Notes under the pieces: model-generated
Told to the model about the DNA's origin: nothing
What the model saw: the letters and a program-made list of their open reading frames with translations, nothing else
Databases searched by the model: none
Made by a program: the position numbers and the translations under genes
Shown here: in pieces, positions 6,190-61,856 of the stretch
Position numbering within the stretch: the stretch's first letter is position 1
Layout of the letters: each line of letters starts with the position of its first letter
Source of the DNA: Candidatus Nanoarchaeia archaeon
GTDB taxonomy: Archaea; Nanobdellota; Nanobdellia; Pacearchaeales; GW2011-AR1
Assembly: GCA_041501125.1 (NCBI GenBank)
Contig: JBGQNO010000001.1
Span: forward strand, 37,981 to 101,980
DNA length: 64,000 nt
Reading direction: 5' to 3'

Positions 6190-6214
6190 GTTTAAAATAA
6201 AAAAGAAAAAAGAT

Positions 6215-6412
6215 TTATTTTTTCTGCTGTTTCATCAGTTTTGAAACAATCCATATCCACAGATATGCCTGTGCAAGAATAACCACTGCGCTTAATAACA
6301 CGCTAGACATGCTTATAGCATAGTAATTCTTGATGGTCATATACAACGATGCCAGATATGCAAGCAGAAGAATGCCTAAAGAAACAATCGCAATCGTATT
6401 CCATGCTTTCAT
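6215..6412 (-). CDS. Small membrane protein (2 TM)
   Basis: 65 aa hydrophobic ORF, convergent with the upstream gene. No recognisable family. Confidence 0.3.
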   Translation of the reverse strand: MKAWNTIAIVSLGILLLAYLASLYMTIKNYYAISMSSVLLSAVVILAQAYLWIWIVSKLMKQQKK

Positions 6413-6456
6413 AAATATAAAAGAACAAAGCAGTATTTAAATTTATCAAAAAATGG

Positions 6457-16225: not shown

Positions 16226-16443
16226 CCAAAACGGTTTGCCTCAAACCCTTTTAAATATTGCTGGCACGTGGGTTCATATAAGGGGCATTTCAGGCACGCT
16301 TCATTATCAATCCTTTCAGAGTCATAAAAGCAGCCTAAAGCCAGTTCTGGTTGTTTGCCTTTTCCGGTCTCGTCCCTTTCTTTGAGCCTTTTAAGAACTA
16401 TCTGTATAGCTACTCTCGAAATTTTATAAATATCTTTCTCCAT
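16222..16443 (-). CDS. Hypothetical small Cys-containing protein
   Basis: 73 aa ORF overlapping the downstream gene by 4 nt. No recognisable family. Confidence 0.3.
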   Translation of the reverse strand: MEKDIYKISRVAIQIVLKRLKERDETGKGKQPELALGCFYDSERIDNEACLKCPLYEPTCQQYLKGFEANRFG

Positions 16444-25442: not shown

Positions 25443-26008
25443 GCATGCAGCAAAACAGCCTGTCTGAAAATTATAGATTTGTGGAAAAAGTTTTGGTTCA
25501 AGGTGATTCAAGATATCTTAATCCTTATCTTACGAAGATTCTTGCTTATTTTATTACAAAGAAAGCGGTGTCTATCAACGAGCGAGAAATTCAAAAAATT
25601 CAAGAGCCAAAAGAAAACGATTTGCATGAACTAACCAATCCTCAAAAATTAGCGAAATATATAGCAAAAACTCTTTTAATCAGCGAGGGCTTTTTAGATT
25701 CCGAAATATTTTTTGAAAGAAATTTTGGAGACAGCAGGCCAGACGTCTCTGCTTTAAATTCAAACAGGGAGATATTTGTTGAATGTTTTTCGTGCAGGAT
25801 TAACAAAGTAATAGATTATCTTTCTCAAGATAGAGAGGTGTGGGTTTTAACATCAGGTTCATACCCCTGGGATAAAAGTCCTCTTACTGAAAAAATTAAA
25901 CTCATTGAATTTAAAAAAGGACAAAACTGGGATTTAATATTTGATGAATACAAAGCAAAACAGAACAAAATGTTAGGTGATATAAAAAATCCTCTTGACA
26001 ATCTGTAG
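25439..26008 (+). CDS. Hypothetical protein co-transcribed with the integrase (possible PD-(D/E)xK-like nuclease fold; C-terminus mimics an integrase C-terminus)
   Basis: 189 aa, 4-nt overlap with the integrase stop. RPDVSAL...EIFVECFSCRINK is loosely PD-(D/E)xK-like. The C-terminal IKNPLDNL matches the XerA-like C-termini SPLDNL and NPLDGL. Confidence 0.3.
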   Translation: MSMQQNSLSENYRFVEKVLVQGDSRYLNPYLTKILAYFITKKAVSINEREIQKIQEPKENDLHELTNPQKLAKYIAKTLLISEGFLDSEIFFERNFGDSRPDVSALNSNREIFVECFSCRINKVIDYLSQDREVWVLTSGSYPWDKSPLTEKIKLIEFKKGQNWDLIFDEYKAKQNKMLGDIKNPLDNL

Positions 26009-26070
26009 TTTTATTTGTCTAATCACGCATTTCCAGACCTTCTGGCATAAGATTCCATATCTTTCCAAGA

Positions 26071-26682
26071 TCATGTCCCAGCAGCTGATGCTGCTTTTCC
26101 GGGTTCTTGTTTTGAAGACTCTGGCTGAATTGACAGAGCTGGCATAGGTGTAGGTGTTGATGAAACATGTTCAGCTTTACTGGATTCTGGTTTTGCAGAT
26201 TCTGCATCTGTTTGTTTTATGTAAGCTTTCAAAATCTGAGTGCTTATAGGGCTGTTAGGGTTTTCTTGTAAAATTTGAGGATATGGTCCAACATAATACT
26301 GTGCGCATAAACCCATGATATATTCGCGGACAACAATATGAGTTTTTGACTCAATCACGCTTCCTGTAACAGTGCTGTCTTTGTCAAGTCCATACCTCAG
26401 AGCCTCGCCAAGATAATGCCTAATCCATCTCTCTTTCCTTTCTATACGATGTTTGTATAACTCTATGTCCAAAACATTATCTTTTTGCTCCGTGACTTTT
26501 TCGCCTTCTTCCGGCTTTTTCTCAACAGGTTCTAAACTTGTTCTTAATATGTTAACATCCCTAATCAATCGTTCTAATGTTCCTACAAGCCATTTTTTTC
26601 TTTCTAATCCGTGCACTAATTCATTAACATTCTGAGCGCTGGTTTTTTCTTCAACTCCCATATCCTGAAAACACATTTTCAA
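26071..26682 (-). CDS. Hypothetical protein with low-complexity Ser/Pro/Lys-rich C-terminus
   Basis: 203 aa ORF. C-terminal AESAKPESSKAEHVSSTPTPMPALSIQPESSKQEPGKAASAAGT. Confidence 0.35.
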   Translation of the reverse strand: MKMCFQDMGVEEKTSAQNVNELVHGLERKKWLVGTLERLIRDVNILRTSLEPVEKKPEEGEKVTEQKDNVLDIELYKHRIERKERWIRHYLGEALRYGLDKDSTVTGSVIESKTHIVVREYIMGLCAQYYVGPYPQILQENPNSPISTQILKAYIKQTDAESAKPESSKAEHVSSTPTPMPALSIQPESSKQEPGKAASAAGT

Positions 26683-26744
26683 TTTATAAGAATTCGTATG
26701 TTTTACCCTAAGCTTTATAAACCATCTTTATATCCATAAGTCTT

Positions 26745-27182
26745 ATGTCAAATAATTTAGGTTCAAGAAGTTCAGACAATGAGCACTCAATTGATGGAAT
26801 TGTAATTCCAGATACACTGAAAGAAGGTTATTCATTAGAAAATATGCAAAATGTTATAGAAATACTCAGAGAGTCAGTTTCTAATCTTCAAGAGCTCACA
26901 AGAGAGCATATAATGCCTGCCAGTGAAGCAGCTAACATTGCACATGCCCTTTATGACAGGACCGAAATTATTGGCTGGCATCTTTTGCATAAAGATAAAG
27001 AGTTTAAAAAGAATGATGAAAGAAAGTACGGCAAGATGATAGACTGTGTTACAGATATCCATACAAATCTTTGCAAATTAATGATTGCTAAGGTTGTATA
27101 CTCGCCTAGCGAACTTGCAGAAAAAACAAGAGAGGAATATTTCCAATTGCATCCAGACCAATACAAAGAAGATGCAGCTTAA
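26745..27182 (+). CDS. Hypothetical protein
   Basis: 145 aa ORF with no recognisable motif. Confidence 0.3.
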   Translation: MSNNLGSRSSDNEHSIDGIVIPDTLKEGYSLENMQNVIEILRESVSNLQELTREHIMPASEAANIAHALYDRTEIIGWHLLHKDKEFKKNDERKYGKMIDCVTDIHTNLCKLMIAKVVYSPSELAEKTREEYFQLHPDQYKEDAA

Positions 27183-27193
27183 TTCTATTTAAA

Positions 27194-27445
27194 ATGAATG
27201 CCACTCAGGAACAGCCATCCACTCTTGTTGAAAGAATAAATTTTCTCAGAGAAGAGATGCGCAACAGAAGAAGACGCGGAGAATACTGCACAGCCCAGGG
27301 CATATTAAAAGACGGCAGTGATAATAAACACATAATTTGTAATTTTCCATACATTGAAAAATATTGTTGGCACAAATGTAATCAAATTCGTGGAGTTCGC
27401 TCAATGCACGATCTTTGCAATTATCGTCCGACACCTTTTGATTAA
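27194..27445 (+). CDS. Hypothetical Cys/His-rich small protein (possible Zn-binding)
   Basis: 83 aa. C..C..H..C....H..C pattern (EYCTAQG...HIICNFPYIEKYCWHKCNQIRGVRSMHDLCNY). Confidence 0.3.
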   Translation: MNATQEQPSTLVERINFLREEMRNRRRRGEYCTAQGILKDGSDNKHIICNFPYIEKYCWHKCNQIRGVRSMHDLCNYRPTPFD

Positions 27446-27494
27446 TATATTTCTTTGCAAGTAAGTTTATAAATTAAAGTTCGCTTTAATATGA

Positions 27495-28055
27495 ATGAGA
27501 AAAGAGGTGGAGAAAGTTTACATAGGTGTAGACGAATCTAATCATGGCAAATATCCAGAATATTTTGCAGCAGTCTTCTCGCCATTTGAATCAGATGTTA
27601 CAGCCAGAAAAATGAAAAAACAAAGAGAAAAATGCAAACATCAAAATCTTCTGTCAATGCTTGCGCGGGAAAGAGATTATTCTTTTTTAAGATTAGAAAA
27701 GCCCGATGATGAAAAATTAGGAAAAGATAAACTTGGAATTGTTATAGCTAGTTTAATCTCTGATTGTGTAGAAGATTATGAAATCAGAGGAAATTATACT
27801 GAATATGCAATTTTTGTCGATGGAATCATAGACAATAAATCAATCGGTCGAGCAAGAAGTATAGTCTCAGATTTGACAGAAATTGAGAAGCAATTTTTAA
27901 TAATCAAACCAAGCAGCGATGAAAGAATTCCAATTGTGAATTACGCTGATGAGCTTGCGCATTTCTTTTTTAGGCATACAACATCTCATGATCAAAATAC
28001 AAAATATTTGTCACACCACAAGGCATTGCTGAGGACAGGAGAAATAGCAGCATGA
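27495..28055 (+). CDS. Hypothetical protein co-transcribed with the second integrase (N-terminal YIGVDES motif, RNase H-like/DUF3800-like)
   Basis: 186 aa, 4-nt overlap with the downstream integrase start. The N-terminal VYIGVDESNHG resembles the first catalytic motif of RNase H-fold/DUF3800 proteins. Confidence 0.3.
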   Translation: MRKEVEKVYIGVDESNHGKYPEYFAAVFSPFESDVTARKMKKQREKCKHQNLLSMLARERDYSFLRLEKPDDEKLGKDKLGIVIASLISDCVEDYEIRGNYTEYAIFVDGIIDNKSIGRARSIVSDLTEIEKQFLIIKPSSDERIPIVNYADELAHFFFRHTTSHDQNTKYLSHHKALLRTGEIAA

Positions 28056-28885
28056 TAAACTACCTTGAAAAAATCTCGATAGAATTGAAGCTGAAAGGCT
28101 TTAGCGAGAAGACTGTAAAAATATATTCCTACTTTGTAAAAAAATATCTTGATAAGCTAGCTTTGGAAAACAAACAGCCTGAGAATGTAATCATTGATGA
28201 TATCAAGAGTTTTTTAGCAAGCTTGATTGACACCTACAGCAATAAATCAAGAGCATTGGCAACATCATCGCTTAGATTCTTCTACAAATCAGTAATGAAC
28301 AAGCCAGAAATTATGATTGGAATAGAAATTCCAAAGTCCGAGCAGTATCTTCCAAGTGTATTGACAAAAGAAGAAATTAAGAAACTTATCGATGCTGCTT
28401 TCACTGAAAAATCAAGATTAATCATGTCTCTTTTGTATTCTTCAGGCATCAGAGTCTCTGAACTTGTAAATATAAAAGTAAATGACATTGATTTTGAAAA
28501 TAAGCGCGGGGTTGTCCATGGAAAAGGAAACAAATCACGTCAGATTTTCCTGAGCGAAAATCTTTGCAAAGACTTAAAGGCATTTTTAGAGAAGAATCCC
28601 AATCAGAAATTCTTGTTCACAAGCAAGGAAGAAGCCCTGACAACAAGAAACATACAAAAAATAATCAAAAAAGCAAAAGAAAAAGCAGGCATAACAAAAA
28701 AAGTCACTCCGCACACTTTTCGCCATTCTTTTGCAACGCATTTGCTTGAAGCCGGCGTCGATATAAGAAAAATCCAGGTTTTACTTGGACATAGCAGGAT
28801 TGACACAACACAAATTTACACAAGAGTTTCTGGAAAAGAGCTTGAAAATATCAAGAATCCGCTTGATGGTTTGGAAAATGTGTGA
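28052..28885 (+). CDS. Tyrosine recombinase, XerA/XerC-like integrase (paralog of 24600-25442)
   Basis: 277 aa. HTFRHSFATHLLEAGVDIRKIQVLLGHSRIDTTQIYTRV. Roughly 40% identical to the first integrase by eye. Confidence 0.85.
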   Translation: MINYLEKISIELKLKGFSEKTVKIYSYFVKKYLDKLALENKQPENVIIDDIKSFLASLIDTYSNKSRALATSSLRFFYKSVMNKPEIMIGIEIPKSEQYLPSVLTKEEIKKLIDAAFTEKSRLIMSLLYSSGIRVSELVNIKVNDIDFENKRGVVHGKGNKSRQIFLSENLCKDLKAFLEKNPNQKFLFTSKEEALTTRNIQKIIKKAKEKAGITKKVTPHTFRHSFATHLLEAGVDIRKIQVLLGHSRIDTTQIYTRVSGKELENIKNPLDGLENV

Positions 28886-30665: not shown

Positions 30666-30749
30666 TGCGGGGAGAAGGAATCGAACCCTCGCAGGCACTA
30701 AGCCACTTGGTCCTTAGCCAAGCCCGTTTGACCGCTCCGGCATCCCCGC
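30666..30749 (-). tRNA. tRNA-Leu, type II. Apparent anticodon AAG (anticodon loop CUAAGGA)
   Basis: Reverse-strand cloverleaf: acceptor GCGGGGA/TCCCCGC+A. D arm CCG-GAGCGGTCAAA-CGG. Anticodon stem CTTGG/CCAAG. Variable arm GGC-TTAGT-GCC. T arm GAGGG-TTCGATT-CCTTC. Confidence 0.6.
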
Positions 30750-36575: not shown

Positions 36576-36660
36576 GCGCCGCTAGTTTACCGGTAGAATT
36601 ACTGCCTTCCATTAGTAAAGAAGTTAGCAGTGGAACTGGGTTCAATTCCCAGGTGGCGCA
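36576..36660 (+). tRNA. tRNA-Gly (anticodon UCC) with a ~14-nt intron
   Basis: Acceptor GCGCCGC/GTGGCGC+A. Anticodon stem ACTGC/GCAGT, loop CUUCCA-[intron TTAGTAAAGAAGTT]-A. T arm CTGGG-TTCAATT-CCCAG. 85 nt in total. Confidence 0.6.
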
Positions 36661-42317: not shown

Positions 42318-43355
42318 ATGGAAAAAGTTCTGGTTACCGGCGGAGCCGGATTTTTTGGAGAGCTGCTGAAAAAAGAATTGCTTGAGAAAGGATTCTTTGT
42401 AGTAAGCATCGACTTGGAGAAAGACAGTTGCAAACATAAAAAACTTGTTGCAGTGCAAGGAGATATAAGAGACAAACAGCAACTAGAAAATCTATTCTCA
42501 AGGTATAAATTCAATGCCATTTTTCATATTGCAGCAATTCTTGCCCACTCTGTAAAAGATATTAATTTTTTATGGACTTCTAATGTGGATGGAACAAGAA
42601 ACATTGCCGAGTTTGCCAGGAAATATAAGGTTCCAAAAGTTGTTTTTACATCTTCTAATTGTTTATGGGCTAAGAATTTTCACAGGCCTGTAAAAGAAGA
42701 GGACATTCCAGAGCCAGTAGAAATTTATGGTAAGTCAAAGCTCGAAGGTGAAAAAATACTTCTTAGCTATAAAAAATATTTTAATGCAGTTATAATAAGA
42801 TGCCCTACAATAATTGATGAAGGCAGACTGGGTTTGCTCGCAATTCTTTTTGATTTTATAGATGAAGGCAGGAAAGTCTGGATTGTTGGCAAGGGAGACA
42901 ACAAGTACCAGTTTATTTATGCAAAAGACTTAATTGATGCCTGCATAAGAGCATTAAGGTATAACAAGTCTGATATTTTTAACATCGGCTCTGATAATGT
43001 TAAAACTTTTAAGGAAGTTTATGAGCATGTTATAAAAAAGGCAGATACAGGCGCAAGAACATTTCCATTGCCAAAAGGGTTGGTGATATTTTTAATGAAG
43101 CTTGCACATAAATTAAAAATCTCTCCGCTTGGCCCGTATCATTACAAGATGATTGCAGAGGATTTTGTTTTTGATACTAGTAAAATAAAAAACAAGCTTG
43201 GATGGAAACCAACACTAACAAATGAAGAAATGTTGTGGAAAGCATATCAGTATTATCACCAAAATAAAGCCGAGATACTCGCAAGAAAAGATGTTTCTGC
43301 TCATAAAAAAGCAGCAAGTATGGGTGTCATTAAGCTGGTAAAGTGGCTTTCTTAA
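42318..43355 (+). CDS. NAD-dependent nucleotide-sugar epimerase/dehydratase (SDR)
   Basis: 345 aa. VTGGAGFFG Rossmann motif and catalytic YGKSK. Confidence 0.8.
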   Translation: MEKVLVTGGAGFFGELLKKELLEKGFFVVSIDLEKDSCKHKKLVAVQGDIRDKQQLENLFSRYKFNAIFHIAAILAHSVKDINFLWTSNVDGTRNIAEFARKYKVPKVVFTSSNCLWAKNFHRPVKEEDIPEPVEIYGKSKLEGEKILLSYKKYFNAVIIRCPTIIDEGRLGLLAILFDFIDEGRKVWIVGKGDNKYQFIYAKDLIDACIRALRYNKSDIFNIGSDNVKTFKEVYEHVIKKADTGARTFPLPKGLVIFLMKLAHKLKISPLGPYHYKMIAEDFVFDTSKIKNKLGWKPTLTNEEMLWKAYQYYHQNKAEILARKDVSAHKKAASMGVIKLVKWLS

Positions 43356-46389: not shown

Positions 46390-47745
46390 ATGGCAAAAGT
46401 TCTTTTGATACAGCCAAATTATGATATCAGCACACCGTATAGATGGCAGTCAGAAGCATGGATGCCGCTTGCCCTTGTCTCACTGGCAACTTATGTCAGA
46501 GACAAGAAAGGTCATGAAGTCAAAATTTATGACAGAAACTTGGACTATAACAATAACGGTTTTATTAGCATTTTAAGAAAATTTAATCCAGACATTGTTG
46601 GTTTAACATGTTATACATCACCTGCAATAAAGGATGTTATGCAGGTTTCTAAAATTACAAAGGAAAATTCCAAGGCAATAGTTCTTGTAGGTGGTCCGCA
46701 TGCCACGCTTGAGCCAAAGTCATTGCTTGATTATCAATACATTGATTATGTTGTTCGTGGCGAGGGCGAGCAGCCTCTTCTAGAAATCTGCGACCTTGTT
46801 GACAAGAAAAAAGCTGCAAAAAATAACATCTCAAAATTGAAAAACGTAAACTATAATGAAATGAGGCCCTTCATTAATCTTAACGATGTTCCTATAATGG
46901 ATTACGACCTGATTGATGTCAAAAGATACACAGTAACTACCTTTGCAACCAGCAGGGGCTGTCCGGGAAGATGCAGATTCTGCTACAACCAGGGAAGAAA
47001 GTTAAGATTCTATGATACTGCAAACACAATTGAGATGATGTCAAGAGTGATAAAAAAATACAGGATAAAAGAGTTTACAATAGCAGACGATAATTTTGCA
47101 AACATGAGCAAGAGAACTACGGACATATGCAATGCCTTGGCAAAATATAATTGCTCATTTTTCTGCTTTCTAAGAACTGACCAAGTCTATGACAAGGTAA
47201 TGTCTGAGTTAAAGAAAGCAGGTTGTCTTACAATTCAGTTTGGTTTTGAATCAGGCAGCCAAAGAATTCTTGATTTTATACGCAAAGACAATACAGTTGA
47301 GCAGAATGCAAAAGCTGTTGAGCAATGCAGGAAATACGGGATTTTTGTAGAAGGAAGCTTTATGATTGGACTGCCGACTGAAACAACCCAGGAACTTCAG
47401 CAAACAATCAGCTTCATAGAAAAAAATAAGCTCGATAATGTATTTACAAAAGTCTACAAGCCATATCCATCAACCGAACTTTATGATTATTGCATACAAA
47501 ACAAGCTGATGAAAAAGCCGGAAACACTTGAGCAGTGGATTGAATTCTCAAATCTTTCAGAAGGCAACATAAACGTGAGTGACATTCCCACACAGGTTTT
47601 GCTTAAGGCATTGCAAAGAACCAATAAACACGACGTATTAATGTACATTAAGAAAGGTTTGATAATGGTAAAAAGAGGAAACATCAGCTACGCATTATTG
47701 AGAGCCAAGCAACTGATAACTCAGCAACTTAAGAAATTCATTTAA
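46390..47745 (+). CDS. B12-binding (class B) radical SAM enzyme
   Basis: 451 aa. N-terminal cobalamin-binding-like domain. CxxxCxxC radical SAM cluster motif SRGCPGRCRFC. Confidence 0.8.
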   Translation: MAKVLLIQPNYDISTPYRWQSEAWMPLALVSLATYVRDKKGHEVKIYDRNLDYNNNGFISILRKFNPDIVGLTCYTSPAIKDVMQVSKITKENSKAIVLVGGPHATLEPKSLLDYQYIDYVVRGEGEQPLLEICDLVDKKKAAKNNISKLKNVNYNEMRPFINLNDVPIMDYDLIDVKRYTVTTFATSRGCPGRCRFCYNQGRKLRFYDTANTIEMMSRVIKKYRIKEFTIADDNFANMSKRTTDICNALAKYNCSFFCFLRTDQVYDKVMSELKKAGCLTIQFGFESGSQRILDFIRKDNTVEQNAKAVEQCRKYGIFVEGSFMIGLPTETTQELQQTISFIEKNKLDNVFTKVYKPYPSTELYDYCIQNKLMKKPETLEQWIEFSNLSEGNINVSDIPTQVLLKALQRTNKHDVLMYIKKGLIMVKRGNISYALLRAKQLITQQLKKFI

Positions 47746-50096: not shown

Positions 50097-51161
50097 ATGG
50101 CATTTAGCAGCATCAAAAACATATTCACTTCGCATCAGAAGGAAGCAGTCAAAAATATATTGAGAGATTTTGTTTATTACACCTGGAAGTTCCTTAGCCC
50201 CTACAAACAAATACTTGATTCTAAAGACATTAAACATGTGCTTGTGGTAAACAAAGGTGTAATCGGTGACTTGCTTGTTATAACACCGATGATAAAAGCG
50301 CTTGCTAAAAAATACCAGAAAGTAGACATTCTTATGCGGCAGGACATGGCAGAGATATTATCTGGAAATTCCAACATAAACAAACTCATGTTCTACACTA
50401 ATTTTGATGACGTGCTTAAGCAGATTAAAGGCAAATATCAGCTGGCTATACTCTTTAATCCGCCAACCTATGAGATGAAGAATCTATGCAGGCAAGCAGG
50501 CATAAAATACATTGTAGGAAACAGTTTTTCATACTCCTTGTCTGATTTTCTCTTAACAGCCAGAACACGAGAAAATTCCAATGAACATTTTGTCCAGAAA
50601 GCACTGGACCAAGCAAGGCTTGCTAATGCAGACATCAAAAACCCAAAAACAGAATTCTTTTTCTCAAAAAAAGATGAGGCATACGTTGAAGATATGCTGA
50701 AATCAAATAAGATTAAAGACTTTGTAGCTGTTCATGCAGGCAAGCGCGGCAATATTAAAGACCCAAATACAAAAAGATTCTTCTGGCCTTCAGAGAGATT
50801 TGCCCAGGTTATTGATTACATTGTCCAAAAATATAAACTTCCAGTTATTCTTACAGGCTCAAGCATGGAAAAAGAAAGAAACGAAGAAATAATGTCTCTT
50901 GTAAAATCAAAAAATGTTTTTAATTTCTGTGAAAAAACAACTCTTAAACAATGGGCGTGTTTGCTGAAGAAAGCCAAGCTTCTTGTAAGCCTGAATACAG
51001 GTGCAACACATATCGCAGCCGCTATGAACACTAAAACAATTGTAATAAATGAAGAATTTCCAGAACTCTGGCATCCATGGCTTCCAGAATCAAGATATAG
51101 AACTTTGCCTTATCCATCAATTGAGCAAGCCAAGGAAGCAATTGATGAGATGTTAGATTAA
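50097..51161 (+). CDS. Glycosyltransferase family 9 (heptosyltransferase-family)
   Basis: 354 aa. GDLLVITPMIKALAKKY N-terminal pattern and C-terminal LVSLNTGATHIAAAMNTKTIVI GT9 signature. Confidence 0.7.
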   Translation: MAFSSIKNIFTSHQKEAVKNILRDFVYYTWKFLSPYKQILDSKDIKHVLVVNKGVIGDLLVITPMIKALAKKYQKVDILMRQDMAEILSGNSNINKLMFYTNFDDVLKQIKGKYQLAILFNPPTYEMKNLCRQAGIKYIVGNSFSYSLSDFLLTARTRENSNEHFVQKALDQARLANADIKNPKTEFFFSKKDEAYVEDMLKSNKIKDFVAVHAGKRGNIKDPNTKRFFWPSERFAQVIDYIVQKYKLPVILTGSSMEKERNEEIMSLVKSKNVFNFCEKTTLKQWACLLKKAKLLVSLNTGATHIAAAMNTKTIVINEEFPELWHPWLPESRYRTLPYPSIEQAKEAIDEMLD

Positions 51162-51165
51162 CATC

Positions 51166-52274
51166 TTAAATGAAATCTAAGCCACAATAACAATTCTTGC
51201 ATACAGGCAACATCTTGTCTATAAAAGCATTTTTTCTAAATTCTTTAAATTTCTTAGAGTTCCATATGTTATCAATATTATCAGTTAGAATATTTCCCAT
51301 ATTCATTCTAATAAAACCACATGGAATTATGTCACCATTATAGTCCAAAAAAAGCATGTTTCTTGCCGTGCAGATTAGTCTCTTTGACCTTAAACTGAAT
51401 ACATTGTAATTAGACGATTCTTTTAAAATAGGGTTAATCTCAATCCGGGCATCAATATTTTTCATTCTTTTGTATGTTTCAAAAAACTCTTTTATACTAA
51501 TATTATCACTTTGCATACAAGTCGATATCATCCCCCCCCCCCGTCAATAATTTTTAATGTATCTTCAATTTGCCCACTTTTCATATTTTGAATAGGATAA
51601 GTTAACCCAAATGATTTTGTCCCTAGGTCCTTGCACAATTTAATAACTTTTTCTGCATCATGAATGTTCTCTTTTTGCAAAACAAAATTAATACCCACAT
51701 CAAAATTTTTAGTCAAAATTTTTATAGTCTTTACTGTTTTGTTAAAAGCCCCGATTCTTCCACGGATTTTGTCGTGAGACTCTTGTAGTCCATCTAAGGA
51801 TATTGAGACGCCGGTAATCGGATAGTTCTTTAATTTCTCTGCAATATTTTCATTGATAAGAGTACCATTGGTTCCAAATTCTATGTTCATTTGATTGTCT
51901 TTTATACAGTCAAGAATTTGAAACAAATCATCTCTCAGAAGGATTTCACCACCAGTTAAACAAATCTTTTTGATGCCAAACTTCTTTAAAGAGAATATAG
52001 CCTTCTCAATCTCTTTTGAAGACAACTCATCTGCATGCAGTTTATTCAGATTTTTAGCTCTGAACTCTTTTTGATGGCACATCTGGCAATTTAGATTACA
52101 TCTCATAGTAAGAAAAATTAGAGCATTTTTTGGCTTAGGAAAGTCTGCCATATTCTTAATCCTTGAATAATCTACTCTTTTCTTTAATTTTGAATATGCT
52201 CTTATTATATACTCGCCAAAGATGTTACTATCTAATGATTTTATAAGTTTTTCTTTCAAAAGTTTAAAGTTCAT
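51166..52274 (-). pseudogene. Radical SAM enzyme with C-terminal SPASM domain, split by a frameshift inside an 11-nt poly-G/C tract
   Basis: Upstream part 51528-52274: CNLNCQMC radical SAM motif, ends ...IIDGGGG then TGA. Downstream part 51166-51531: SPASM Cys motifs CTARNM...CGF...CKNCYCG. A +1 G (12 G) would fuse the frames. Confidence 0.75.
51532..51542. repeat. Homopolymeric C(11) tract (G(11) on the coding strand) at the frameshift site
   Basis: Read directly: tccccccccccccg spanning 51532-51542. Confidence 0.9.
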
Positions 52275-54232: not shown

Positions 54233-55369
54233 ATGGAAAGTTTTGCAACGAATTTAGCGACATTGTTTAGAAGACTTGGTGTAATGGCAGATTATATAGC
54301 CTGGCTTCTGCTTGACCCAAGCAAATTTACTATAATAAAAAAAGAAAAAATCAAAAAAGTCTTGGTTATTCATCTGGGTGCTATTGGAGAAGTCATTATC
54401 TCAACCCCGATTATTCCTGCTTTGAAAAAATCATTGAAAGCACAAATAGTATACATGGTTTCCCCTGGCAAGGAAGTTCTTTTTGAAAATAATCCTTATA
54501 TAGACAAGGTTTTGACTTATCAGGACAATTTCTGGAAAAATATTGATGCCTTGAAAAAAGAAAAATTTGACATTGTGTTTATTATTTATCCAAGCTCCCA
54601 GAAACTGGCTCTTGAATGTCTTTTAGCTGGAATAAAATACAGGATTGGAGGATTTAAGGCAGTAAAATCTCCACTTAACCTGCTTCTGACAAGAAAAATG
54701 CTTGACTTCAGGAAAAAACACGCTGTTCACTGCAATCTTGATGTTATAAGAACTATAGGCATTGACAACAAAAATCCAGAGCTTGAACTGCATATTCCAG
54801 ACATTTACAACAGGAAAATCAATAATCTGCTGAAACAGCTTAAGATAAAAGAATTTGTAATTATCCATCAGGGTTCAAGTTTCCTGGGCAAATTGAAATA
54901 TCCGTCAAGGCTTTGGCCATTGGACAGATATGCAAAAGTTGCAGACTTTATTTCTAAAAATTATAATGTCAAAATCCTGATTACAGGCGCTCCTGGAGAA
55001 ACGCCATTTACAAACGAATTAATAAAGCAAATAAAAGATAAAAGAAATGTCATTAACCTTTCAGAGAAGCTGAATCTTGGAGATATGATGGCTCTTGTTT
55101 CCAGGGCAAAACTATTGATTGCACCAAGCACAGGCATTGCTCATATTGCAGCAGCCTTAGGAACTCCGATGGTTCATTTGTCAGGTCCGGACGGTTATCA
55201 CTGGCAGCCATGGGCCAAGAAAGGCAAGTGCATTGCAATACAGCACCTTGAAGTATGCACAGGATGCAACACTATAATCTGCAGAAAGAAAAATACAGAA
55301 TGTTTAAAAGCCATAACTGTCAGCGATGTAACCCAGGCAGCAAAGCATTTCCTGGGGAAAATTAAGTAA
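54233..55369 (+). CDS. Glycosyltransferase family 9 (heptosyltransferase-family), second copy
   Basis: 378 aa. LIAPSTGIAHIAAALGTPMVHLSGP GT9 signature. KKVLVIHLGAIGEVIISTP N-terminus. Confidence 0.75.
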   Translation: MESFATNLATLFRRLGVMADYIAWLLLDPSKFTIIKKEKIKKVLVIHLGAIGEVIISTPIIPALKKSLKAQIVYMVSPGKEVLFENNPYIDKVLTYQDNFWKNIDALKKEKFDIVFIIYPSSQKLALECLLAGIKYRIGGFKAVKSPLNLLLTRKMLDFRKKHAVHCNLDVIRTIGIDNKNPELELHIPDIYNRKINNLLKQLKIKEFVIIHQGSSFLGKLKYPSRLWPLDRYAKVADFISKNYNVKILITGAPGETPFTNELIKQIKDKRNVINLSEKLNLGDMMALVSRAKLLIAPSTGIAHIAAALGTPMVHLSGPDGYHWQPWAKKGKCIAIQHLEVCTGCNTIICRKKNTECLKAITVSDVTQAAKHFLGKIK

Positions 55370-55415: not shown

Positions 55416-56906
55416 ATGGCTAAGAAAATTCTTTTGGGCGCAGAATATTCAGTTTTAGAGCCCCTGGCATTGTTCTATCTTTCAGCAGTCGCCAAATCTG
55501 AAGGAGTTGAGTCTAAAATTGTTTTTGGCAGAGGCCCTCAATATCCAGAATGGAGAGAAGCTTTAAGCACATTCCAGCCTGATTTTCTAGGACTAAGTGT
55601 CTATACCGGACACCATGCTGCAATCAAAAAATTCTTAAAAGACGTCGTCAAGCCAAAATATCCAACTCTTGAAGTAATTGTTGGAGGCCCTCATGCAACC
55701 TTCTTTCCAAGACAGGTTTTAGATTTTGCAGATTACGTTGTTGTAGGAGAGGGATTTGGTTCATTAAGAAAAATTTTGAAAGGTGAAGCTCCAAAAGGGA
55801 TACTTCTCCCACTGGATAAGGAACAGTTTCCAAAGTCTGACAGGGATGATTTTTACAAAGAATACCCGGAGCATCTTAAAAATAGAATCAAGAATGTTAT
55901 AGCTGGAACAGGCTGCCCATACATGTGTTCATATTGTTATAATAGTGCAAATTTTGACGAAAATCCTGACTTTGATGAATCACAGAAAAAACTTTTGCTT
56001 GAAAAATATCCTCATAAAAGGTTCTTTCCCTTGGAGCAAAGGCCTGTTCAGGATTTTGTTGATGAAATTTCAGATGTCCTCAGATTATCTCCTGAGACAG
56101 AATTTTTTTATTTCCAGGATGATGTTTTTGGCAGTAACCTGGACTGGCTGAAAGAATTTGTTTCCAAAGCTTCTATAATGGACATATCTTTCCATGCAAA
56201 TACACGATTTGAACATATTGACCCAAGAAAGGATTCTGGAAAAGAAAGAATTGACTTGCTGAAAAAAGCAGGCTGTACAGGGTTTTCAATAGCTATAGAA
56301 TCAGCAGACCCTATTATTTGCAGGGAAGTTTTGTCAAGAAATCTCGACCATGATTTAGTATTTGCTTCAATGAATTATCTTCATGAGCACGGATTCAAAG
56401 TCAGAACCAATAATATGCTTGGACTGCCGCTTGGAGCAACTATGAATCCGACAAAAGTCAATCTTGAAGCAGACCTGGAAACTCTTGAGCTGAATGTCAA
56501 GTTATACAAAGAATTTGGCATTCCAACTTTCGCATGGGCTTCTACACTTGCACCTTATCCAGGAACGCATATTGACAGATACTGCAAAGAGCATGGTTTC
56601 TATGAGAATGTCTTTACAGATTTAACAGGAGAAGAAACCTACAGGATTAAAAGTGTTCTAAGGCATCCAAGAAAATGGGTTGGCTCGGAATTATCATCAA
56701 AAACACCTGAGGTATGGCTGTCCAATTATGAAGAGGAAATGTACAGGAATCAGATTAATACTTTAATGAACTTATTTCCGACTTTTGCGAAAATTCCTGA
56801 TGGGCATAAACTTGCCCGGGAATTTTTAGAACACGATAATCTTAATTTTGAAGTTCTTAATAAAGCATTCAGAACGCATGTATACAATAAAGAACTCTTT
56901 TTATAA
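55416..56906 (+). CDS. B12-binding (class B) radical SAM enzyme
   Basis: 496 aa. N-terminal B12-binding-like fold. Cluster motif GTGCPYMCSYCYN. Confidence 0.75.
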   Translation: MAKKILLGAEYSVLEPLALFYLSAVAKSEGVESKIVFGRGPQYPEWREALSTFQPDFLGLSVYTGHHAAIKKFLKDVVKPKYPTLEVIVGGPHATFFPRQVLDFADYVVVGEGFGSLRKILKGEAPKGILLPLDKEQFPKSDRDDFYKEYPEHLKNRIKNVIAGTGCPYMCSYCYNSANFDENPDFDESQKKLLLEKYPHKRFFPLEQRPVQDFVDEISDVLRLSPETEFFYFQDDVFGSNLDWLKEFVSKASIMDISFHANTRFEHIDPRKDSGKERIDLLKKAGCTGFSIAIESADPIICREVLSRNLDHDLVFASMNYLHEHGFKVRTNNMLGLPLGATMNPTKVNLEADLETLELNVKLYKEFGIPTFAWASTLAPYPGTHIDRYCKEHGFYENVFTDLTGEETYRIKSVLRHPRKWVGSELSSKTPEVWLSNYEEEMYRNQINTLMNLFPTFAKIPDGHKLAREFLEHDNLNFEVLNKAFRTHVYNKELFL

Positions 56907-56943: not shown

Positions 56944-58305
56944 ATGAAAATCAACCTTATCGTTCTTCCATTTGAAGAAAATGTCAAGTCACCGCCGATT
57001 TGTCTCGGTTATATAGCCTCGCTTTTAAAGAAAGACAGTAATGATATCAAAATCATAGACTTAAACTTTGAAACTCAGATTTCTCAGGCAGATTTGAATA
57101 TTGTAACTACAACAACAGTCGATTACTATAACTGCCCTTTATTGAATATGGATGTTATTGACAAATGGCTCTCTGTTATTTCCAAGATAAAAACACCCCT
57201 TGCAGTCATAGGTCCGCATGTTACAACAATGCCTGAATATTTTGAAAAATATGCCCAGTATCTTGTTGTAGGCGAGCCAGAACTCACAATAAAAGAACTG
57301 GTTGTTTCATTAACAGAAGGTAAGTCACTAAAAAATATAAAAGGACTTTATTATAAGCAAGGCAGGAAATTTATCAAGAATAAGTCCCGTGAATTGCTTC
57401 AAAATCTCGATAGTTTGCCTTTTCCAGACAGAAGTTTGATTGATAATTCTCGCTATGTTAATCCAGTATGCAAAAATCATCCTTACACGATGGTCATTTC
57501 AAGTAGAGGATGTCCATACCACTGCACATACTGTTATATGGATGTCTACGGGCATTTTTGGAGAGCAAGAAGCGCTAAAAATGTAGTTCAAGAATTAATA
57601 GAAATCAGAAGAAAGTATAATATAAAAGAAATTGTCTTTCGCGATGATTTATTCTCGCTTGACAAAAAGCGCGTTATAGAAATCTGCAATGGTATTGTAA
57701 AGAATAATCTTGATTTGACATGGACCTGCCAGACCCGGGTTGATTCTGTAGACGAAGAAATAATAAGCAAGATGAAAGAAGCCGGCTGTTACTCTATATC
57801 CTTTGGCATAGAAGCCGGCTTGCAAGAGATGATGAACCGGTTGAAAAAAGGAATTAAAGTCGAGCAGGTCAAGAAAGCAATCTTTCTCTGCAAGAAATAT
57901 GATGTAAGAACAAGAGGATATTTTATAATTGGCTGTCCAGGCGAGACAAAAGAATCAATTCAGCAGACACTTGAACTTGCCAAAGAGCTTGACTTGGACT
58001 ATTTTATGCTTAGTATACTAACACCATATCCTCAGACAGAAATTTATGAAGATGCTTTTAAGAAGCGAATTATTAAAAAACGAAGTTGGGATGAAGCGCT
58101 GAGATGCGCAGGCATTATTGAAACGCCTTTTACATTCAATGAACTTGTGAAAATGAAGCGTGATTTATATTTAAGATATTATTTCAGGCCAGGATACATA
58201 CTGCCAAGATTAGCGCCTGGAAAAATAGACATGCTTTACCATGGCTTCATGCCGTTTGTCAAAAACATGATGATAAGAAAATTCAGAGGCAAAAAACTGG
58301 ATTAA
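56944..58305 (+). CDS. B12-binding (class B) radical SAM enzyme
   Basis: 453 aa. Cluster motif SSRGCPYHCTYCYM. N-terminal B12-like domain. Confidence 0.75.
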   Translation: MKINLIVLPFEENVKSPPICLGYIASLLKKDSNDIKIIDLNFETQISQADLNIVTTTTVDYYNCPLLNMDVIDKWLSVISKIKTPLAVIGPHVTTMPEYFEKYAQYLVVGEPELTIKELVVSLTEGKSLKNIKGLYYKQGRKFIKNKSRELLQNLDSLPFPDRSLIDNSRYVNPVCKNHPYTMVISSRGCPYHCTYCYMDVYGHFWRARSAKNVVQELIEIRRKYNIKEIVFRDDLFSLDKKRVIEICNGIVKNNLDLTWTCQTRVDSVDEEIISKMKEAGCYSISFGIEAGLQEMMNRLKKGIKVEQVKKAIFLCKKYDVRTRGYFIIGCPGETKESIQQTLELAKELDLDYFMLSILTPYPQTEIYEDAFKKRIIKKRSWDEALRCAGIIETPFTFNELVKMKRDLYLRYYFRPGYILPRLAPGKIDMLYHGFMPFVKNMMIRKFRGKKLD

Positions 58306-59498
58306 TTCTTGACAAGTTTTCTGTACATGCTAAAAGTTTCCTTGGCAATCTCTCTCCACGAGAATTTCTTTTCTGCTGTTTTCCTTGCAATCTTGCCAAG
58401 TAAATCTCTTTTCTTTTCATTTCCCAGAAGACTCGTAAGCTGTTTTGCCAGTTCATCAGATTTAATTGGGTTAAAATACAGAATTTCTTTATTCTTGCCG
58501 AGTTCCATGTTTGGTGCAATGTTTGATGATATTATTGCAAGCCCAGACGCCATTGCTTCAAGCAGGACAAGAGGCAACCCTTCTGCAAAACTCGGAAGAA
58601 CAAAAATATCAGCAGCCCGGTAATATTCAGGCATTTTGATATTCTCAACACTTCCAATAAATTTGACATATTGCTGAAGATTGTTTTCATTGACAAAATT
58701 CATAATCTCCTCAAAATATTTTTTATCATCAATTTGCCCGATAAAAATGAATTTTACATTCTTGTCCTTGGACAAAACTTTTGGAATAGCTTTGATTATT
58801 GCCATCTGGTTCTTGATTCTTGAAATCCTTGCAACGCACAATACTATCTTTTCATCAGTCTTGGCAAGCATTTTCCTCACACCAGACTTGCCTGGATAAA
58901 ATTTGATTAAATCAACACCATTTGAAATATGAATAACTTTTTTGGAATCAACACCTGCGCGTTTTTCTATTGATTTTTTTAAGGTTTCAGACACTGCAAC
59001 GACCTCATCAGCATTTTTGAAGCATAGTCTTTCTACTGAAGTTTTCAGCCAGAATGTCTTTGGCAGCATCTCATTGGACAAAGTCCAGAATGGTGTGTGC
59101 AAAGTATAAACAAATTTGCTTTTGTAAAATAATCTGTTCATTAACGAGAGTGCAAAGCCAGTGTACTGGTTATGGCAGTGTATTATGTCAAATTTCTCCT
59201 TACACATCAAAGGAATGAAATTAACCAGTGTCTTGATTGTGTATAACATTCTTCTTGCCACATGTCTTAATGTGCCAGGTGTTGTGTATACATCAGGCCC
59301 CCATGCTTTTGGCATGTCAATATTATGGTAGATAACCCCGGATAATTTATCTCGGTTATTATCCTTAAAATCAAGGATATGAACCTCACAAAGCTTGCTA
59401 AGTTCCTTTGACAGGTTGTATGCTACAGATTCTGTTGCTGTAGCACTCTTGGCAGAAATTGAGGACATTCCAGTCCCGACTTGCAAGACTTTCATGAC
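58302..59498 (-). CDS. Glycosyltransferase family 4 (GT-B)
   Basis: Start trimmed to MKVLQVGTGMSSIS. The track ORF extends to 59786 through low-complexity sequence. FAEGLPLVLLEAMASGLAIIS motif. Confidence 0.7.
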   Translation of the reverse strand, partial: VMKVLQVGTGMSSISAKSATATESVAYNLSKELSKLCEVHILDFKDNNRDKLSGVIYHNIDMPKAWGPDVYTTPGTLRHVARRMLYTIKTLVNFIPLMCKEKFDIIHCHNQYTGFALSLMNRLFYKSKFVYTLHTPFWTLSNEMLPKTFWLKTSVERLCFKNADEVVAVSETLKKSIEKRAGVDSKKVIHISNGVDLIKFYPGKSGVRKMLAKTDEKIVLCVARISRIKNQMAIIKAIPKVLSKDKNVKFIFIGQIDDKKYFEEIMNFVNENNLQQYVKFIGSVENIKMPEYYRAADIFVLPSFAEGLPLVLLEAMASGLAIISSNIAPNMELGKNKEILYFNPIKSDELAKQLTSLLGNEKKRDLLGKIARKTAEKKFSWREIAKETFSMYRKLVKN

Positions 59499-59547
59499 AT
59501 ACAGAAAAGAAAATAATTTATAAAGGTTGCCTGTTTGTCCGATTGCA

Positions 59548-60423
59548 ATGATAAGCGTAATCATAACATCATACAAAGAACCTGGAACCATAGGAAGAGC
59601 TATAGAATCAATTGCTGAACAGAAGCTTCTAGATACTGAAATTATAGTTGTAGCTCCAGATATGGAGACGCTGGCAGAAGCAGGCAAACTCCGGCAGAAG
59701 TATAAGAATTTGCGATTAATACAAGATGAGGGCAAAGGAAAGTCATCTGCACTCAACTTGGCAGTTTCAAAAGCAAAAGGAGACATTCTTGTGCTGACTG
59801 ATGGCGATGTTTACGTTGGCAATGACTCTATACTTCCACTTTTAACACCTTTTACTGACGGCAAGATAGGTGCTGTCTCTGGAAATCCAGTCTCATTAAA
59901 TCCCAAGGATAATAAATTTGGTTTCTGGGCGTATGTTCTGACGAAAGTAGCAGATGAAAGAAGAATTTATGCCTCTGAGCATAATCTCAGATTTTTCTGT
60001 TCAGGATATCTGTTTGCAATCAGAAAAAAACTTTTTCCAAATCTTCCAGAAGACTTGCTTTCAGAAGACGGATATATCTCGCATAAAGTCTATAAAGAAG
60101 GATTCGAAATCGCATATTCTTCAGAATCTAAGGTATTTGTGAAGTATCCTGATAACTTTGATGGTTGGATAAAGCAGAAGAAAAGAAGCGCCGGCGGTTA
60201 CAATCAGATTAAAAAAATGATAGGTGTGGAAATTCGTTCATTTAAAAAAGAATATTCGGGCGCGATTTCATTCTTCAAGTATTTTAAAGGTTTGAAAGAG
60301 CTGTTGTGGCTTTTTGAACTGTTCGCAGCCAGAGTTTATCTATGGATTATTATCTATCGGGATATAGATGTCAAAAATCAAAGCCATCATAAAATCTGGC
60401 AAAGAGTAGAAAGCACAAAATAA
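59548..60423 (+). CDS. Glycosyltransferase family 2 (GT-A)
   Basis: Start trimmed to MISVIITSYKEP. SALNLAVSKAKGDILVLTDGDV DXD region. Confidence 0.7.
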   Translation: MISVIITSYKEPGTIGRAIESIAEQKLLDTEIIVVAPDMETLAEAGKLRQKYKNLRLIQDEGKGKSSALNLAVSKAKGDILVLTDGDVYVGNDSILPLLTPFTDGKIGAVSGNPVSLNPKDNKFGFWAYVLTKVADERRIYASEHNLRFFCSGYLFAIRKKLFPNLPEDLLSEDGYISHKVYKEGFEIAYSSESKVFVKYPDNFDGWIKQKKRSAGGYNQIKKMIGVEIRSFKKEYSGAISFFKYFKGLKELLWLFELFAARVYLWIIIYRDIDVKNQSHHKIWQRVESTK

Positions 60424-60464
60424 AGTATAGAAAAATCTTTATACCTCTCGATTGTCGTTTCGGC

Positions 60465-61856
60465 ATGAAGCACCAGAAAATTTTGTCTAAAGAAAAGCTT
60501 AAGCAGATTATTCGCAAGTATAAATCTAAGGGCAAGAAAGTTGTCTGGACAAACGGATGCTTTGACCTGATACACTCAGGACACGTAAGATACCTTAACT
60601 CAGCAAAAAAACTTGGTGATATCCTGATTGTTGGTTTGAATTCTGACAAATCTGTCAGACAATTAAAAGGTCCAGACAGACCGATTCAGCCGCAGGATCA
60701 AAGAGCAGAAGTTCTTGCAGCTTTGGATTCTGTAGATTATGTTACAATATTTAATGATACTAGAGTTACTAAAATTCTCAATTATCTTAAACCAGACGTT
60801 TTTGTAAAAGGCGGCGACTATACGCTCGAGAAAATGGATCAGAATGAGAGAAAAGTATTGGAAAGCTATGGAGCAAAGATAAGATTCATCCCAGTTGAAA
60901 TAAATACATCAACATCAAAGATGCTTGACAAAATTACCAGCTCAGAAACTAAAAAAGGAGTTAAAGAATTCCTGTCCAACCTTCCTGTCAAAATGCACTA
61001 TGACTACAAGGATTACAACGAGCAAAAATACGAGACTGGTTTCTGGAACATCAACCGCTCAAAATACAAATGGTTCCAGAATTATACAAAACTAAAGATT
61101 TTCAGCAAATGGATAAAGGCTTCTAAAGGCAAGTCAGTGTTCTTGGATGCAGGCGGCGGTGTTGGAAACTGGACATTTTATTTTCTTAAAGATTTCAAGA
61201 AGTGCATAGTTCTTGATATTTCAGAAAACGCTTTAGCGCAGATTCCAGAAAAAGAAATTGTTAAGCTGCACGGCTCAATTCTCAAAATCCCCTTGCCCGA
61301 TAATTCAGTAGACTGCATACTACTTGCAGATGTCTTTGAGCATATTTTTTTGAATGACCTGCCAAAGATGCTTCAGGAACTTGCAAGAATCCTGACAAAA
61401 GATGGCAGAATCATAATTTTTACATCAGAAAATGGATATGGCATTGATTTGATTTTTGATAACTTGTTTGGACAGATGCGCGGAGGATTGACACTGGCAG
61501 ATATAGAGTGCGGGCATGTTAATCGTTTGACACTGGATGAAAAAAGAAAACTCTTCGCACAAGCAGGCTTGAAGCTGGCAGATTATTATAACTACAGTAT
61601 CTTTTTTCAGCAGCTTACTGACTTTGTTAAAGACAGTTCAGCCAAAATCATAGGCAAGCTGTTTGCAAGAAACAAGAGTGAAGAATCCGGCCAGTTTTTG
61701 AAAGACAGGTTCAAAACCCAGAAAGAGCCAAGCATTGTCACAAGAGCATTATTTTCTATTCCAACATTAATTTCATATCTGGATATTTATCTTGGAAGAT
61801 TTATCCGAGGCTCATACATTTTTTTGCTCCTCGAAAAAAGCAATAAAAAGGAATAA
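60465..61856 (+). CDS. Bifunctional protein: N-terminal RfaE-domain-II-like heptose-1-phosphate nucleotidyltransferase (cytidylyltransferase fold) fused to a C-terminal class I SAM methyltransferase
   Basis: 463 aa. N-terminus WTNGCFDLIHSGHVRYL...LNSDKSVRQLKGPDRP closely matches HldE/RfaE domain II. C-terminal half has methyltransferase motif I FLDAGGGVGNW and DVFEHI. Confidence 0.7.
   Translation: MKHQKILSKEKLKQIIRKYKSKGKKVVWTNGCFDLIHSGHVRYLNSAKKLGDILIVGLNSDKSVRQLKGPDRPIQPQDQRAEVLAALDSVDYVTIFNDTRVTKILNYLKPDVFVKGGDYTLEKMDQNERKVLESYGAKIRFIPVEINTSTSKMLDKITSSETKKGVKEFLSNLPVKMHYDYKDYNEQKYETGFWNINRSKYKWFQNYTKLKIFSKWIKASKGKSVFLDAGGGVGNWTFYFLKDFKKCIVLDISENALAQIPEKEIVKLHGSILKIPLPDNSVDCILLADVFEHIFLNDLPKMLQELARILTKDGRIIIFTSENGYGIDLIFDNLFGQMRGGLTLADIECGHVNRLTLDEKRKLFAQAGLKLADYYNYSIFFQQLTDFVKDSSAKIIGKLFARNKSEESGQFLKDRFKTQKEPSIVTRALFSIPTLISYLDIYLGRFIRGSYIFLLLEKSNKKE

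Follow-up and report, generated by a model that had tools for sequence, protein, structure and literature searches.

Our analysis identified a gene that joins a nucleotidyltransferase (NT) of the HldC/RfaE-II type to a class I S-adenosylmethionine (SAM) methyltransferase (MTase), in a 64,000-nucleotide stretch of a Candidatus Nanoarchaeia archaeon contig (JBGQNO010000001.1; the whole stretch is called the window below). The reading that we favor, and to which we assign a probability of roughly 0.6, is that this NT::MTase gene is an inherited, bifunctional gene of a DPANN-type archaeon within a surface-glycan cluster, that it came from neighboring HldE and MTase genes, and that it combines an NT forming ADP-heptose, which would feed heptosyltransferase-like enzymes of glycosyltransferase family 9 (GT9), with an MTase methylating a sugar. 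The gene and its parts are as follows (aa, amino acids):

60465..61856, plus strand: fusion gene, 463 aa, ATG start, one terminal stop; HldC/RfaE-II-type NT and class I SAM MTase
60465..60944, plus strand: NT half (residues 1-160), heptose-1-phosphate adenylyltransferase type (TIGR02199 and 5x9q matches)
60945..60992, plus strand: 16-residue linker (the SSETKKGVKEFLSNLPVK region, residues 161-176), from DNA alignment with the related loci L001 and L002
60993..61853, plus strand: MTase half (residues 177-463) with helical lid (Pfam, family alignment, AlphaFold2 [AF2] model)

The initial annotation of this gene, made from the sequence alone, had read the N-terminal approximately 150 aa as HldE/RfaE domain II and the C-terminal approximately 300 aa as a class I methyltransferase. 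The first assignment is borne out by the NCBIfam model TIGR02199 (rfaE_dom_II), which matches residues 15 to 158 over profile positions 2 to 143 (142/144) with 185.6 bits against a cutoff of 181.5; the second is confirmed by the Pfam domains PF08241 (64 bits; cutoff, 21.2) and PF13649 (53 bits; cutoff, 27) and by the motif FLDAGGGVGNW in the C-terminal half, whose GGGVG occupies residues 230 to 234. CTP_transf_like spans residues 28 to 159 (1e-20) and Methyltransf_11 spans residues 227 to 318 (2e-17) in Pfam, and the NT motifs are WTNGCFDLIHSGHVRYL (HSGH, 37-40), KGPDRP (68-73), KGGDY (115-119), and STS (149-151). Alignment with L001 and L002 places the domain boundary at residue 160/161 and the ancestral MTase start at M177.

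One inherited reading frame under purifying selection

At least four distinct full-length alleles, from independent Joint Genome Institute (JGI), NCBI, and Logan assemblies, keep this 1392-nt frame open, and the differences among them are mostly synonymous. An NCBI contig of 133,272 bp encodes a protein identical to that of the window (P0386). The gene of P0385, which corresponds to L010/L011 (a 98-kb JGI contig and a Logan assembly from the Sequence Read Archive), differs from that of the window by 6 nt; P0001, which is locus L005 on a JGI contig of 511,838 bp (Ga0373625), has about 93% DNA identity to the window across the locus; and P0383, on a 2.6-kb contig, shows 23 amino-acid differences. 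A further fragment, P0384, is cut by its contig end, starting at residue 132, and crosses the junction.

Between the window and L005, 53 codons differ, 45 of them synonymously and 8 non-synonymously. The ratios of non-synonymous to synonymous rates (dN/dS) for this pair, by the Nei-Gojobori method, are lower in both halves of the fusion than in three neighboring genes, which encode a family 2 glycosyltransferase (GT2) and two radical SAM (rSAM) enzymes, one of them B12 binding:

NT half: 0.03
MTase half: 0.048
Neighboring GT2: 0.136
Neighboring rSAM, 453 aa: 0.106
Neighboring B12-rSAM, 496 aa: 0.099

In the NT half, 2 of 18 changes are non-synonymous, a departure from neutrality with a binomial p of 1.8e-9. 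Strong purifying selection thus acts on each half of the fused gene, which excludes both an assembly artefact and a decaying remnant. A more distant relative, L101 (Ga0172364_10075012; 83% DNA identity), carries a GT4 gene and the GT2, shares the TATA-bearing spacer, and likewise starts its NT where the kinase is missing. At the protein level this NT is 92% identical to that of the window, versus 73.5% for the GT2, and the contig stops at residue 98, before the junction.

The initial annotation had itself raised the possibility that the fusion is a frameshift or assembly artefact of two genes. Close relatives do carry the MTase as a separate gene, and one exact-sequence contig look-up missed the window protein, although the cluster listing did show the identical P0386. 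Since at least four independent alleles from three sources of assembly keep the frame with mainly synonymous differences, a frameshift, a chimeric assembly, or a miscalled open reading frame (ORF) is extremely improbable.

As a separate observation, only 6 nt differ between the window and L010/L011 in 12,120 bp, all of them within the MTase half of the fusion gene. Three of the six are non-synonymous and fall in codons 424 to 426 (61734-61742; IVT versus FIA), and L005 shares F424. This patch could reflect micro-recombination or strain mixing.

Predicted activities of the two halves and their derivation

Judged by its family, the NT half most likely makes ADP-heptose from D-glycero-beta-D-manno-heptose 1-phosphate and ATP. 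Of the columns that are at least 90% conserved in 244 RfaE-II domains, it keeps all 32, including HxGH, KGxxRP, and KGGDY. Its top matches (50 to 65% identity) are two-domain PfkB-plus-NT HldE proteins, as are all of its nearest relatives (54 to 65%). Its best match in the PDB is 5x9q (2.4e-31), deposited as a "putative cytidylyltransferase," which we take to be HldC of Burkholderia pseudomallei; TagD (1coz) matches at 4.7e-8. A better score as TagD, the other doubt that had been voiced about this domain, was not obtained, as TIGR01518 gives 44.5 bits against a cutoff of 165.4. The model for the bifunctional HldE (NF008454/PRK11316) reaches 166.6 bits against a cutoff of 521, matching only at profile positions 319 to 473, and the Pfam scan found no PfkB-type kinase domain in the fusion protein. 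Five residues before its STS motif, the NT half carries Val, not Arg. According to a commentary on a study of heptose nucleotidyltransferases, the STTR5 arginine is tied to CDP/UDP-heptose promiscuity (Tang et al., Science 2024; commentary PMC11461863); since the NT half lacks this arginine, it is predicted to be specific for ADP-heptose rather than promiscuous in this way.

Two genes that did not figure in the initial annotation encode plausible, putative consumers of the nucleoside diphosphate (NDP)-heptose that the NT half would supply:

50097..51161, plus strand: GT9 heptosyltransferase-like (Glyco_transf_9, 1e-17); best NCBIfam models are lipopolysaccharide heptosyltransferases, below cutoffs
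54233..55369, plus strand: second GT9 heptosyltransferase-like (Glyco_transf_9, 2e-22); best NCBIfam models are heptosyltransferase II/III, below cutoffs

The first shares 36.5% identity with the GT9 that neighbors the MTase of locus L014, and the second is conserved in L001, L005, and L010.

The stand-alone MTases of L001 (288 aa) and L002 are 89% and 79% identical, respectively, to the MTase half, whose nearest relatives are stand-alone proteins of about 286 aa. In an alignment of the archaeal MTase family (A2), DAGGGVGN, DVxEH, and H175/N177 are invariant and GH(V/L)NR is distinctive. An AF2 model of the MTase half alone (predicted local distance difference test score [pLDDT], 84.6; predicted template modeling score [pTM], 0.84) gave more than 1300 Foldseek matches in the PDB at E <= 1e-3, and 50 of the 50 listed have the class I MTase fold; an alignment combining the fusion with homologues of both HldE and the MTase (A1) set kinase domains wrongly against the MTase half and was not used further. 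The matches are class I MTases of the small-molecule kind that bear a helical lid; among them are RebM and AtmM, which are sugar O-methyltransferases, and phosphoethanolamine methyltransferases. No named MTase equivalog in NCBIfam was reached, the best being BioC (33 bits; cutoff, 185) and the UbiE subfamily (32 to 33 bits; cutoff, 158), and the "UbiE" label in the source annotation of MTase relatives is generic. A C-terminal membrane anchor on the MTase was considered and rejected, given a maximal Kyte-Doolittle value of 1.26 and a model of helices with a terminal strand.

Across seven sampled genomic contexts, members of this MTase family lie in glycan clusters with GT9 sequence in five (the window, L001, L002, L008, and L014), where the GT9 in L002 is only a partial tblastn match at a contig edge. 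L001 and L014 hold HldE besides GT9; in L014 the MTase is 5 kb from a GT9-GmhA-GmhB-HldE operon, and in L008 it is near GT9. Given the fold and this genomic association, the most economical reading is that the MTase acts on a sugar of the same heptose-containing glycan, most likely as an O-methyltransferase of the heptose itself or of a carrier-linked intermediate.

In the mechanism that we propose, the NT half would thus convert heptose 1-phosphate and ATP to ADP-heptose, which the two GT9 heptosyltransferase-like enzymes would use as donor, and the MTase half would O-methylate a sugar in the same glycan, so that the fusion most likely couples two steps of one glycan pathway. The coupling of sugar-phosphate activation to methylation might be kinetic or spatial.

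The origin of the fusion can be followed in the genes that flank it and in the corresponding slot of related loci. The flanking genes are:

59548..60423, plus strand: GT2 glycosyltransferase (Pfam); best NCBIfam match PgaC/IcaA-like, below cutoff; syntenic in L001, L002, L005, L010, and L101
61881..63476, plus strand: 531-aa polytopic membrane protein with at least nine hydrophobic segments; weak PMT_2/GT-C match (Pfam, 2.4e-6)

The slot takes the following forms:

Window lineage: GT2 - NT::MTase - membrane protein
L002/L003: GT2 - 78-nt spacer - MTase (79% identical) - membrane protein
L001: GT2 - full HldE (PfkB + NT, 473 aa) - 30-nt spacer - MTase (288 aa, 89%) - membrane protein
L095: HldE - membrane protein
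L014: GT9 - GmhA - GmhB - HldE - membrane protein, with the MTase 5 kb away

Orthologues of the membrane protein, which no NCBIfam model matched, adjoin HldE or the MTase in L001, L002, L005, L095, L014, and L008. DNA similarity between L001 and the window holds at 89% until the GT2 stop (60423) and returns at 87% from 60999, six bases into the MTase. The NT half aligns to residues 305 to 469 of the L001 HldE, so that its first residues fall at the linker between kinase and NT (about residue 305); M177 is aligned with the start codon of the stand-alone MTases, and residues 161 to 176 coincide with the intergenic spacer of the relatives. Alignments and synteny together indicate an origin from an HldE gene adjoining the MTase, in which the kinase domain and a stop codon were lost. 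In the course of events that we propose, whose order is uncertain, the PfkB kinase domain would have been deleted from the HldE neighboring the MTase gene, the HldE stop codon would have been lost, and the spacer, with the promoter of the MTase itself, would have become the 16-residue linker.

A recent origin from an HldE like that of L001 does not fit the data. A simple truncation in place of an L001-type HldE is rejected by the low identity of the NT to that of the L001 protein relative to the flanking genes (figures below) and by a neighbor-joining tree, in which the two are not sisters. In that tree the NT of the window branches alone, surrounded by two-domain HldE proteins of DPANN archaea that are all 58 to 61% identical to it. 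The closest NT found is that of L095 (65%), whose HldE adjoins a membrane protein 60% identical to that of the window, an arrangement that would fit vertical inheritance of an HldE already present at the locus.

The upstream region of the gene bears on whether one protein or two are made:

60437..60444, plus strand: TATA-like box CTTTATAC, 21-28 nt before the fusion ATG; presumed to drive a leaderless transcript

This box, kept in L101 as CCTTTATACC, probably acts as a promoter. Such an upstream TATA-like box is typical of leaderless archaeal transcripts, and most of eleven cluster genes examined have an A/T-rich box (TTTATA, TTATAAA, or similar) about 21 to 30 nt before the ATG. The stand-alone MTase genes of L001 and L002 likewise have A/T-rich TATA-like sequence before their starts. 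No TATA-like box is found in the 45 nt before M177, because those 45 nt now encode the linker. The MTase appears to have lost its promoter in this way, and the lack of a box suggests that it is probably produced solely as part of the 53-kDa fusion.

Evidence against the reading and alternative explanations

Several findings weigh against a heptose-linked, functionally coupled enzyme, and we gather them here with the alternatives to which they lend weight. One group concerns the rest of the ADP-heptose pathway. Genes for a PfkB kinase, an SIS protein (GmhA), or a HAD phosphatase (GmhB) were not found in the window, either by Pfam scans of ORFs of at least 186 aa and some shorter ones (several of 120 to 185 aa being left out) or by an ORF-independent tblastn search that put archaeal GmhA, GmhB, and HldE kinase queries to the entire window, in agreement with the initial annotation, which had reported none. 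GmhA, GmhB, and heptose kinase were also not found 10 kb upstream or 2.2 kb downstream (about 76 kb in total), and the 511,838-bp contig of P0001 gave no match among the best 120 for the L001 HldE kinase domain (down to about 40% identity), which is no more than suggestive.

Because no GmhA, GmhB, or kinase turned up near the fusion, we keep in view that the NT half has been repurposed for another sugar 1-phosphate or a phospho-alcohol, or serves as a non-catalytic nucleotide-binding domain for the MTase. The small margin over the curated equivalog-domain cutoff of rfaE_dom_II (4 bits) and the presence of STS instead of STT, with Val at -5, would fit this. However, STS and Val are also found in the bona fide two-domain HldE of L001 and so are not signs of repurposing, every family-conserved residue is intact, and two heptosyltransferase-like consumers are encoded in the cluster. 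Stand-alone heptose kinases are, moreover, common in related archaea among the matches listed, which makes a diverged one elsewhere in the genome plausible. On balance, repurposing seems to us very unlikely.

Three side observations touch on this pathway. An archaeal metagenome-assembled genome holds the complete GT9-GmhA-GmhB-HldE-membrane protein operon of L014 (GCA_043815245.1, JBDRJD010000014.1; 3532-7147), and the same cluster, at 18010-19317, encodes an APS-kinase::class I methyltransferase fusion of 435 aa, another union of an activation enzyme with an MTase. In L008, a split transketolase-like pair with a NUDIX hydrolase (14784-16404) lies in a GT9/MTase/radical-SAM glycan cluster by AglB/STT3; this arrangement may provide sedoheptulose 7-phosphate locally for making heptose.

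A second group of findings concerns the partners and the descent of the two halves. The fold search, the PDB sequence search, and NCBIfam returned generic MTase matches and no specific substrate, and two of the seven MTase-family contexts sampled (L012 and L013) are without GT9 or HldE nearby. The NT half, furthermore, is only 56 to 58% identical to the NT of the HldE in the same slot of L001, versus 83 to 89% for the flanking genes.

Finally, M177 has been retained, so that the MTase may also be translated separately, and the fusion occurs in a single narrow lineage, as a neutral loss of a stop codon would allow. The fusion might then be real but functionally neutral, joining two glycan enzymes that act independently, without channeling and perhaps with a second start at M177. 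The whole stand-alone MTase sequence is kept, the linker is simply the former spacer, some 17 in-frame stop-free codons would arise by chance in an estimated 10% of cases (frame included), and RfaE-II domains join many partners. Against this stand a frame that has stayed open across lineages diverged by about 7% in DNA over the locus, the kinase-less NT start that L101 keeps at 17% DNA divergence (its contig ending short of the junction), and the lack, before M177, of the TATA-like box of stand-alone MTase genes. The linker is also identical in all full-length alleles and in fragment P0384, although only one to two changes would be expected there. We regard a neutral fusion as unlikely, but as deserving serious consideration.

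What the evidence shows is that two catalytic domains encoded in a glycan cluster linked to heptose are under selection, rather than that they act on the same molecule. That the halves act consecutively on one molecule, yielding a methylated nucleotide-heptose or methylating heptose 1-phosphate before its activation, is in our judgment distinctly doubtful; if true, this would be a dedicated one-polypeptide route to an O-methyl-heptose donor in an archaeal lineage, and, with kinase, isomerase, and phosphatase not found nearby, the symbiont might even obtain heptose phosphate from its host. The fusion is readily explained as a Rosetta-stone joining of neighboring pathway genes.

The glycan cluster and comparison with known systems

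The fusion gene belongs to a glycan cluster that extends from about 40 kb to the window end (about 64 kb) and encodes PMT_2/GT-C-type membrane proteins, a Wzx-type flippase, three GT4 and one GT2 glycosyltransferases, the two GT9 proteins, several B12-binding and other radical SAM enzymes, three further methyltransferases, and an SDR epimerase. HldD was considered as an assignment for the epimerases at 42318-43355 and just past the window end and was set aside, since GalE-like models scored equally well or better, all below cutoff. The gene content of the window is archaeal, with PolD DP1/DP2, Orc1/Cdc6, a diphthamide synthase, and an Rpb3-type RNA polymerase subunit; its G+C content is about 37%, and the nearest homologues carry DPANN source names (Pacearchaeota, Woesearchaeota, and Nanoarchaeota).

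Some features of the cluster are of interest in their own right. Three B12-binding or HpnJ/BchE-like radical SAM enzymes (46390-47745, 55416-56906, and 56944-58305) stand beside four SAM methyltransferases, and the glycan that they help to make may carry unusually heavy C- and O-methylation or be rearranged in other ways. On the minus strand at 51166-52274, a 247-aa radical SAM ORF (51528-52274) and a 121-aa SPASM-only ORF (51166-51531) overlap by 4 nt and appear to be a radical SAM-SPASM enzyme split into two reading frames. The 494-aa GT4 ORF at 58302-59786 (minus strand) is over-extended, relatives being called at 397 to 420 aa; at that length there is no real overlap with the GT2 start at 59548, and GT4 and GT2 are divergently transcribed.

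Outside the cluster, two tyrosine recombinase genes (24600-25442 and 28052-28885) flank ORFs without a Pfam match at 24600-28885, where the G+C fraction dips to about 0.35. This stretch, just past which lies a tRNA-Leu (30666-30749), may be an integrated mobile element. An 85-nt tRNA-Trp(CCA) found by ARAGORN at 36576-36660, with no Rfam call at the gathering threshold, is probably an intron-containing archaeal tRNA.

The initial annotation had not recognized the fusion as a standard domain architecture, and this impression has been upheld. Among the best 150 matches of an exhaustive phmmer search over 1.84 billion representatives there was no other NT-MTase fusion, none was found in 185,579 GTDB species representatives, and a scan of JGI metagenomes added only L101. 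No MTase is among the 25 most frequent Pfam families of 140 NT-containing representatives, and none of the 140 matched the MTase of the fusion by phmmer. Apparent fusions in reverse order (P0125, P0127, P0132, P0134, P0152, P0166, P0171, and P0178) are all tandem NT-NT duplications, and tblastn matches extending beyond residue 200 (L081, L154, L037, L065, L108, L130, L161, L028, and L044) read through stop codons and are not fusions. On the bacterial contig L154 (Ga0247841_10008433, about 5960-7284), a stand-alone HldC-like NT gene is followed directly by an FkbM-type methyltransferase ORF, which is an independent NT-MTase adjacency with a different MTase family. NT::MTase is therefore a domain architecture new to an enzyme family that is itself known. 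Our literature search found nothing specific on this fusion, on ADP-heptose in DPANN archaea, or on archaeal heptosyltransferases.

NDP-heptose enzymes have only recently been shown to be widespread beyond bacteria, and archaeal use of heptose is essentially uncharacterized. The locus suggests that DPANN archaea build methylated, heptose-containing surface glycans, and a heptose-activating domain tied to an MTase among heptosyltransferase-like, radical-SAM, and GT-C genes is a compact clue to such use. The syntenic series, from no HldE through full HldE to a kinase-less fusion, also illustrates cleanly how neighboring genes give rise in nature to a Rosetta-stone fusion. In practical terms the gain is modest, one expressible 53-kDa protein offering a handle on whether heptose methylation falls at the nucleotide-sugar stage; to a specialist, the value of the finding as a handle on archaeal heptose glycans is neat more than startling.

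Compared with HldC and HldE domain II, the NT half shares family, conserved motifs, a length of about 160 aa, and co-occurring GT9 heptosyltransferase-like genes, but it is archaeal, is fused at its C terminus to an MTase without a preceding PfkB domain, and has no GmhA, GmhB, or kinase found nearby. Heptose nucleotidyltransferases ("HENases") have been described across kingdoms, with functional NDP-heptose enzymes in archaea, and a commentary on that work gives three architectures, namely, NT alone, kinase plus NT, and isomerase/kinase plus NT (Tang et al., Science 2024; PMC11461863); NT::MTase lies outside the three as described there. RfaE-II domains are otherwise seen with SIS/GmhA, HAD phosphatase, reversed-order PfkB, radical SAM-SPASM, SDR, formyltransferase, and CMP-sugar synthase partners and as tandem NT-NT. 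These fusions resemble that of the window in joining a small NT domain to an enzyme of sugar activation or modification, whereas the partner here is a methyltransferase.

The MTase half invites comparison with AglP of Haloferax volcanii N-glycosylation, a stand-alone archaeal glycan methyltransferase. Like AglP, it is a class I SAM MTase encoded in an archaeal glycan cluster and presumed to methylate a sugar of a carrier-linked glycan. At the level of gene order, Arn/Gtr-type lipid-carrier modules consist of a GT2, a modifying enzyme, and a GT-C transferase, and the succession of GT2, then HldE, NT::MTase, or MTase, then a PMT_2-like membrane protein recalls ArnC-ArnD-ArnT, as an analogy only. 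It differs in that the GT2 of the window best matches enzymes of the PgaC/IcaA type rather than the ArnC/GtrB type and in that the membrane protein falls outside the NCBIfam models. By this analogy, a weaker form of joint action may be considered, in which the GT2, NT::MTase, and GT-C trio constitutes a lipid-carrier pathway that adds methyl-heptose to the cell surface from outside the membrane.

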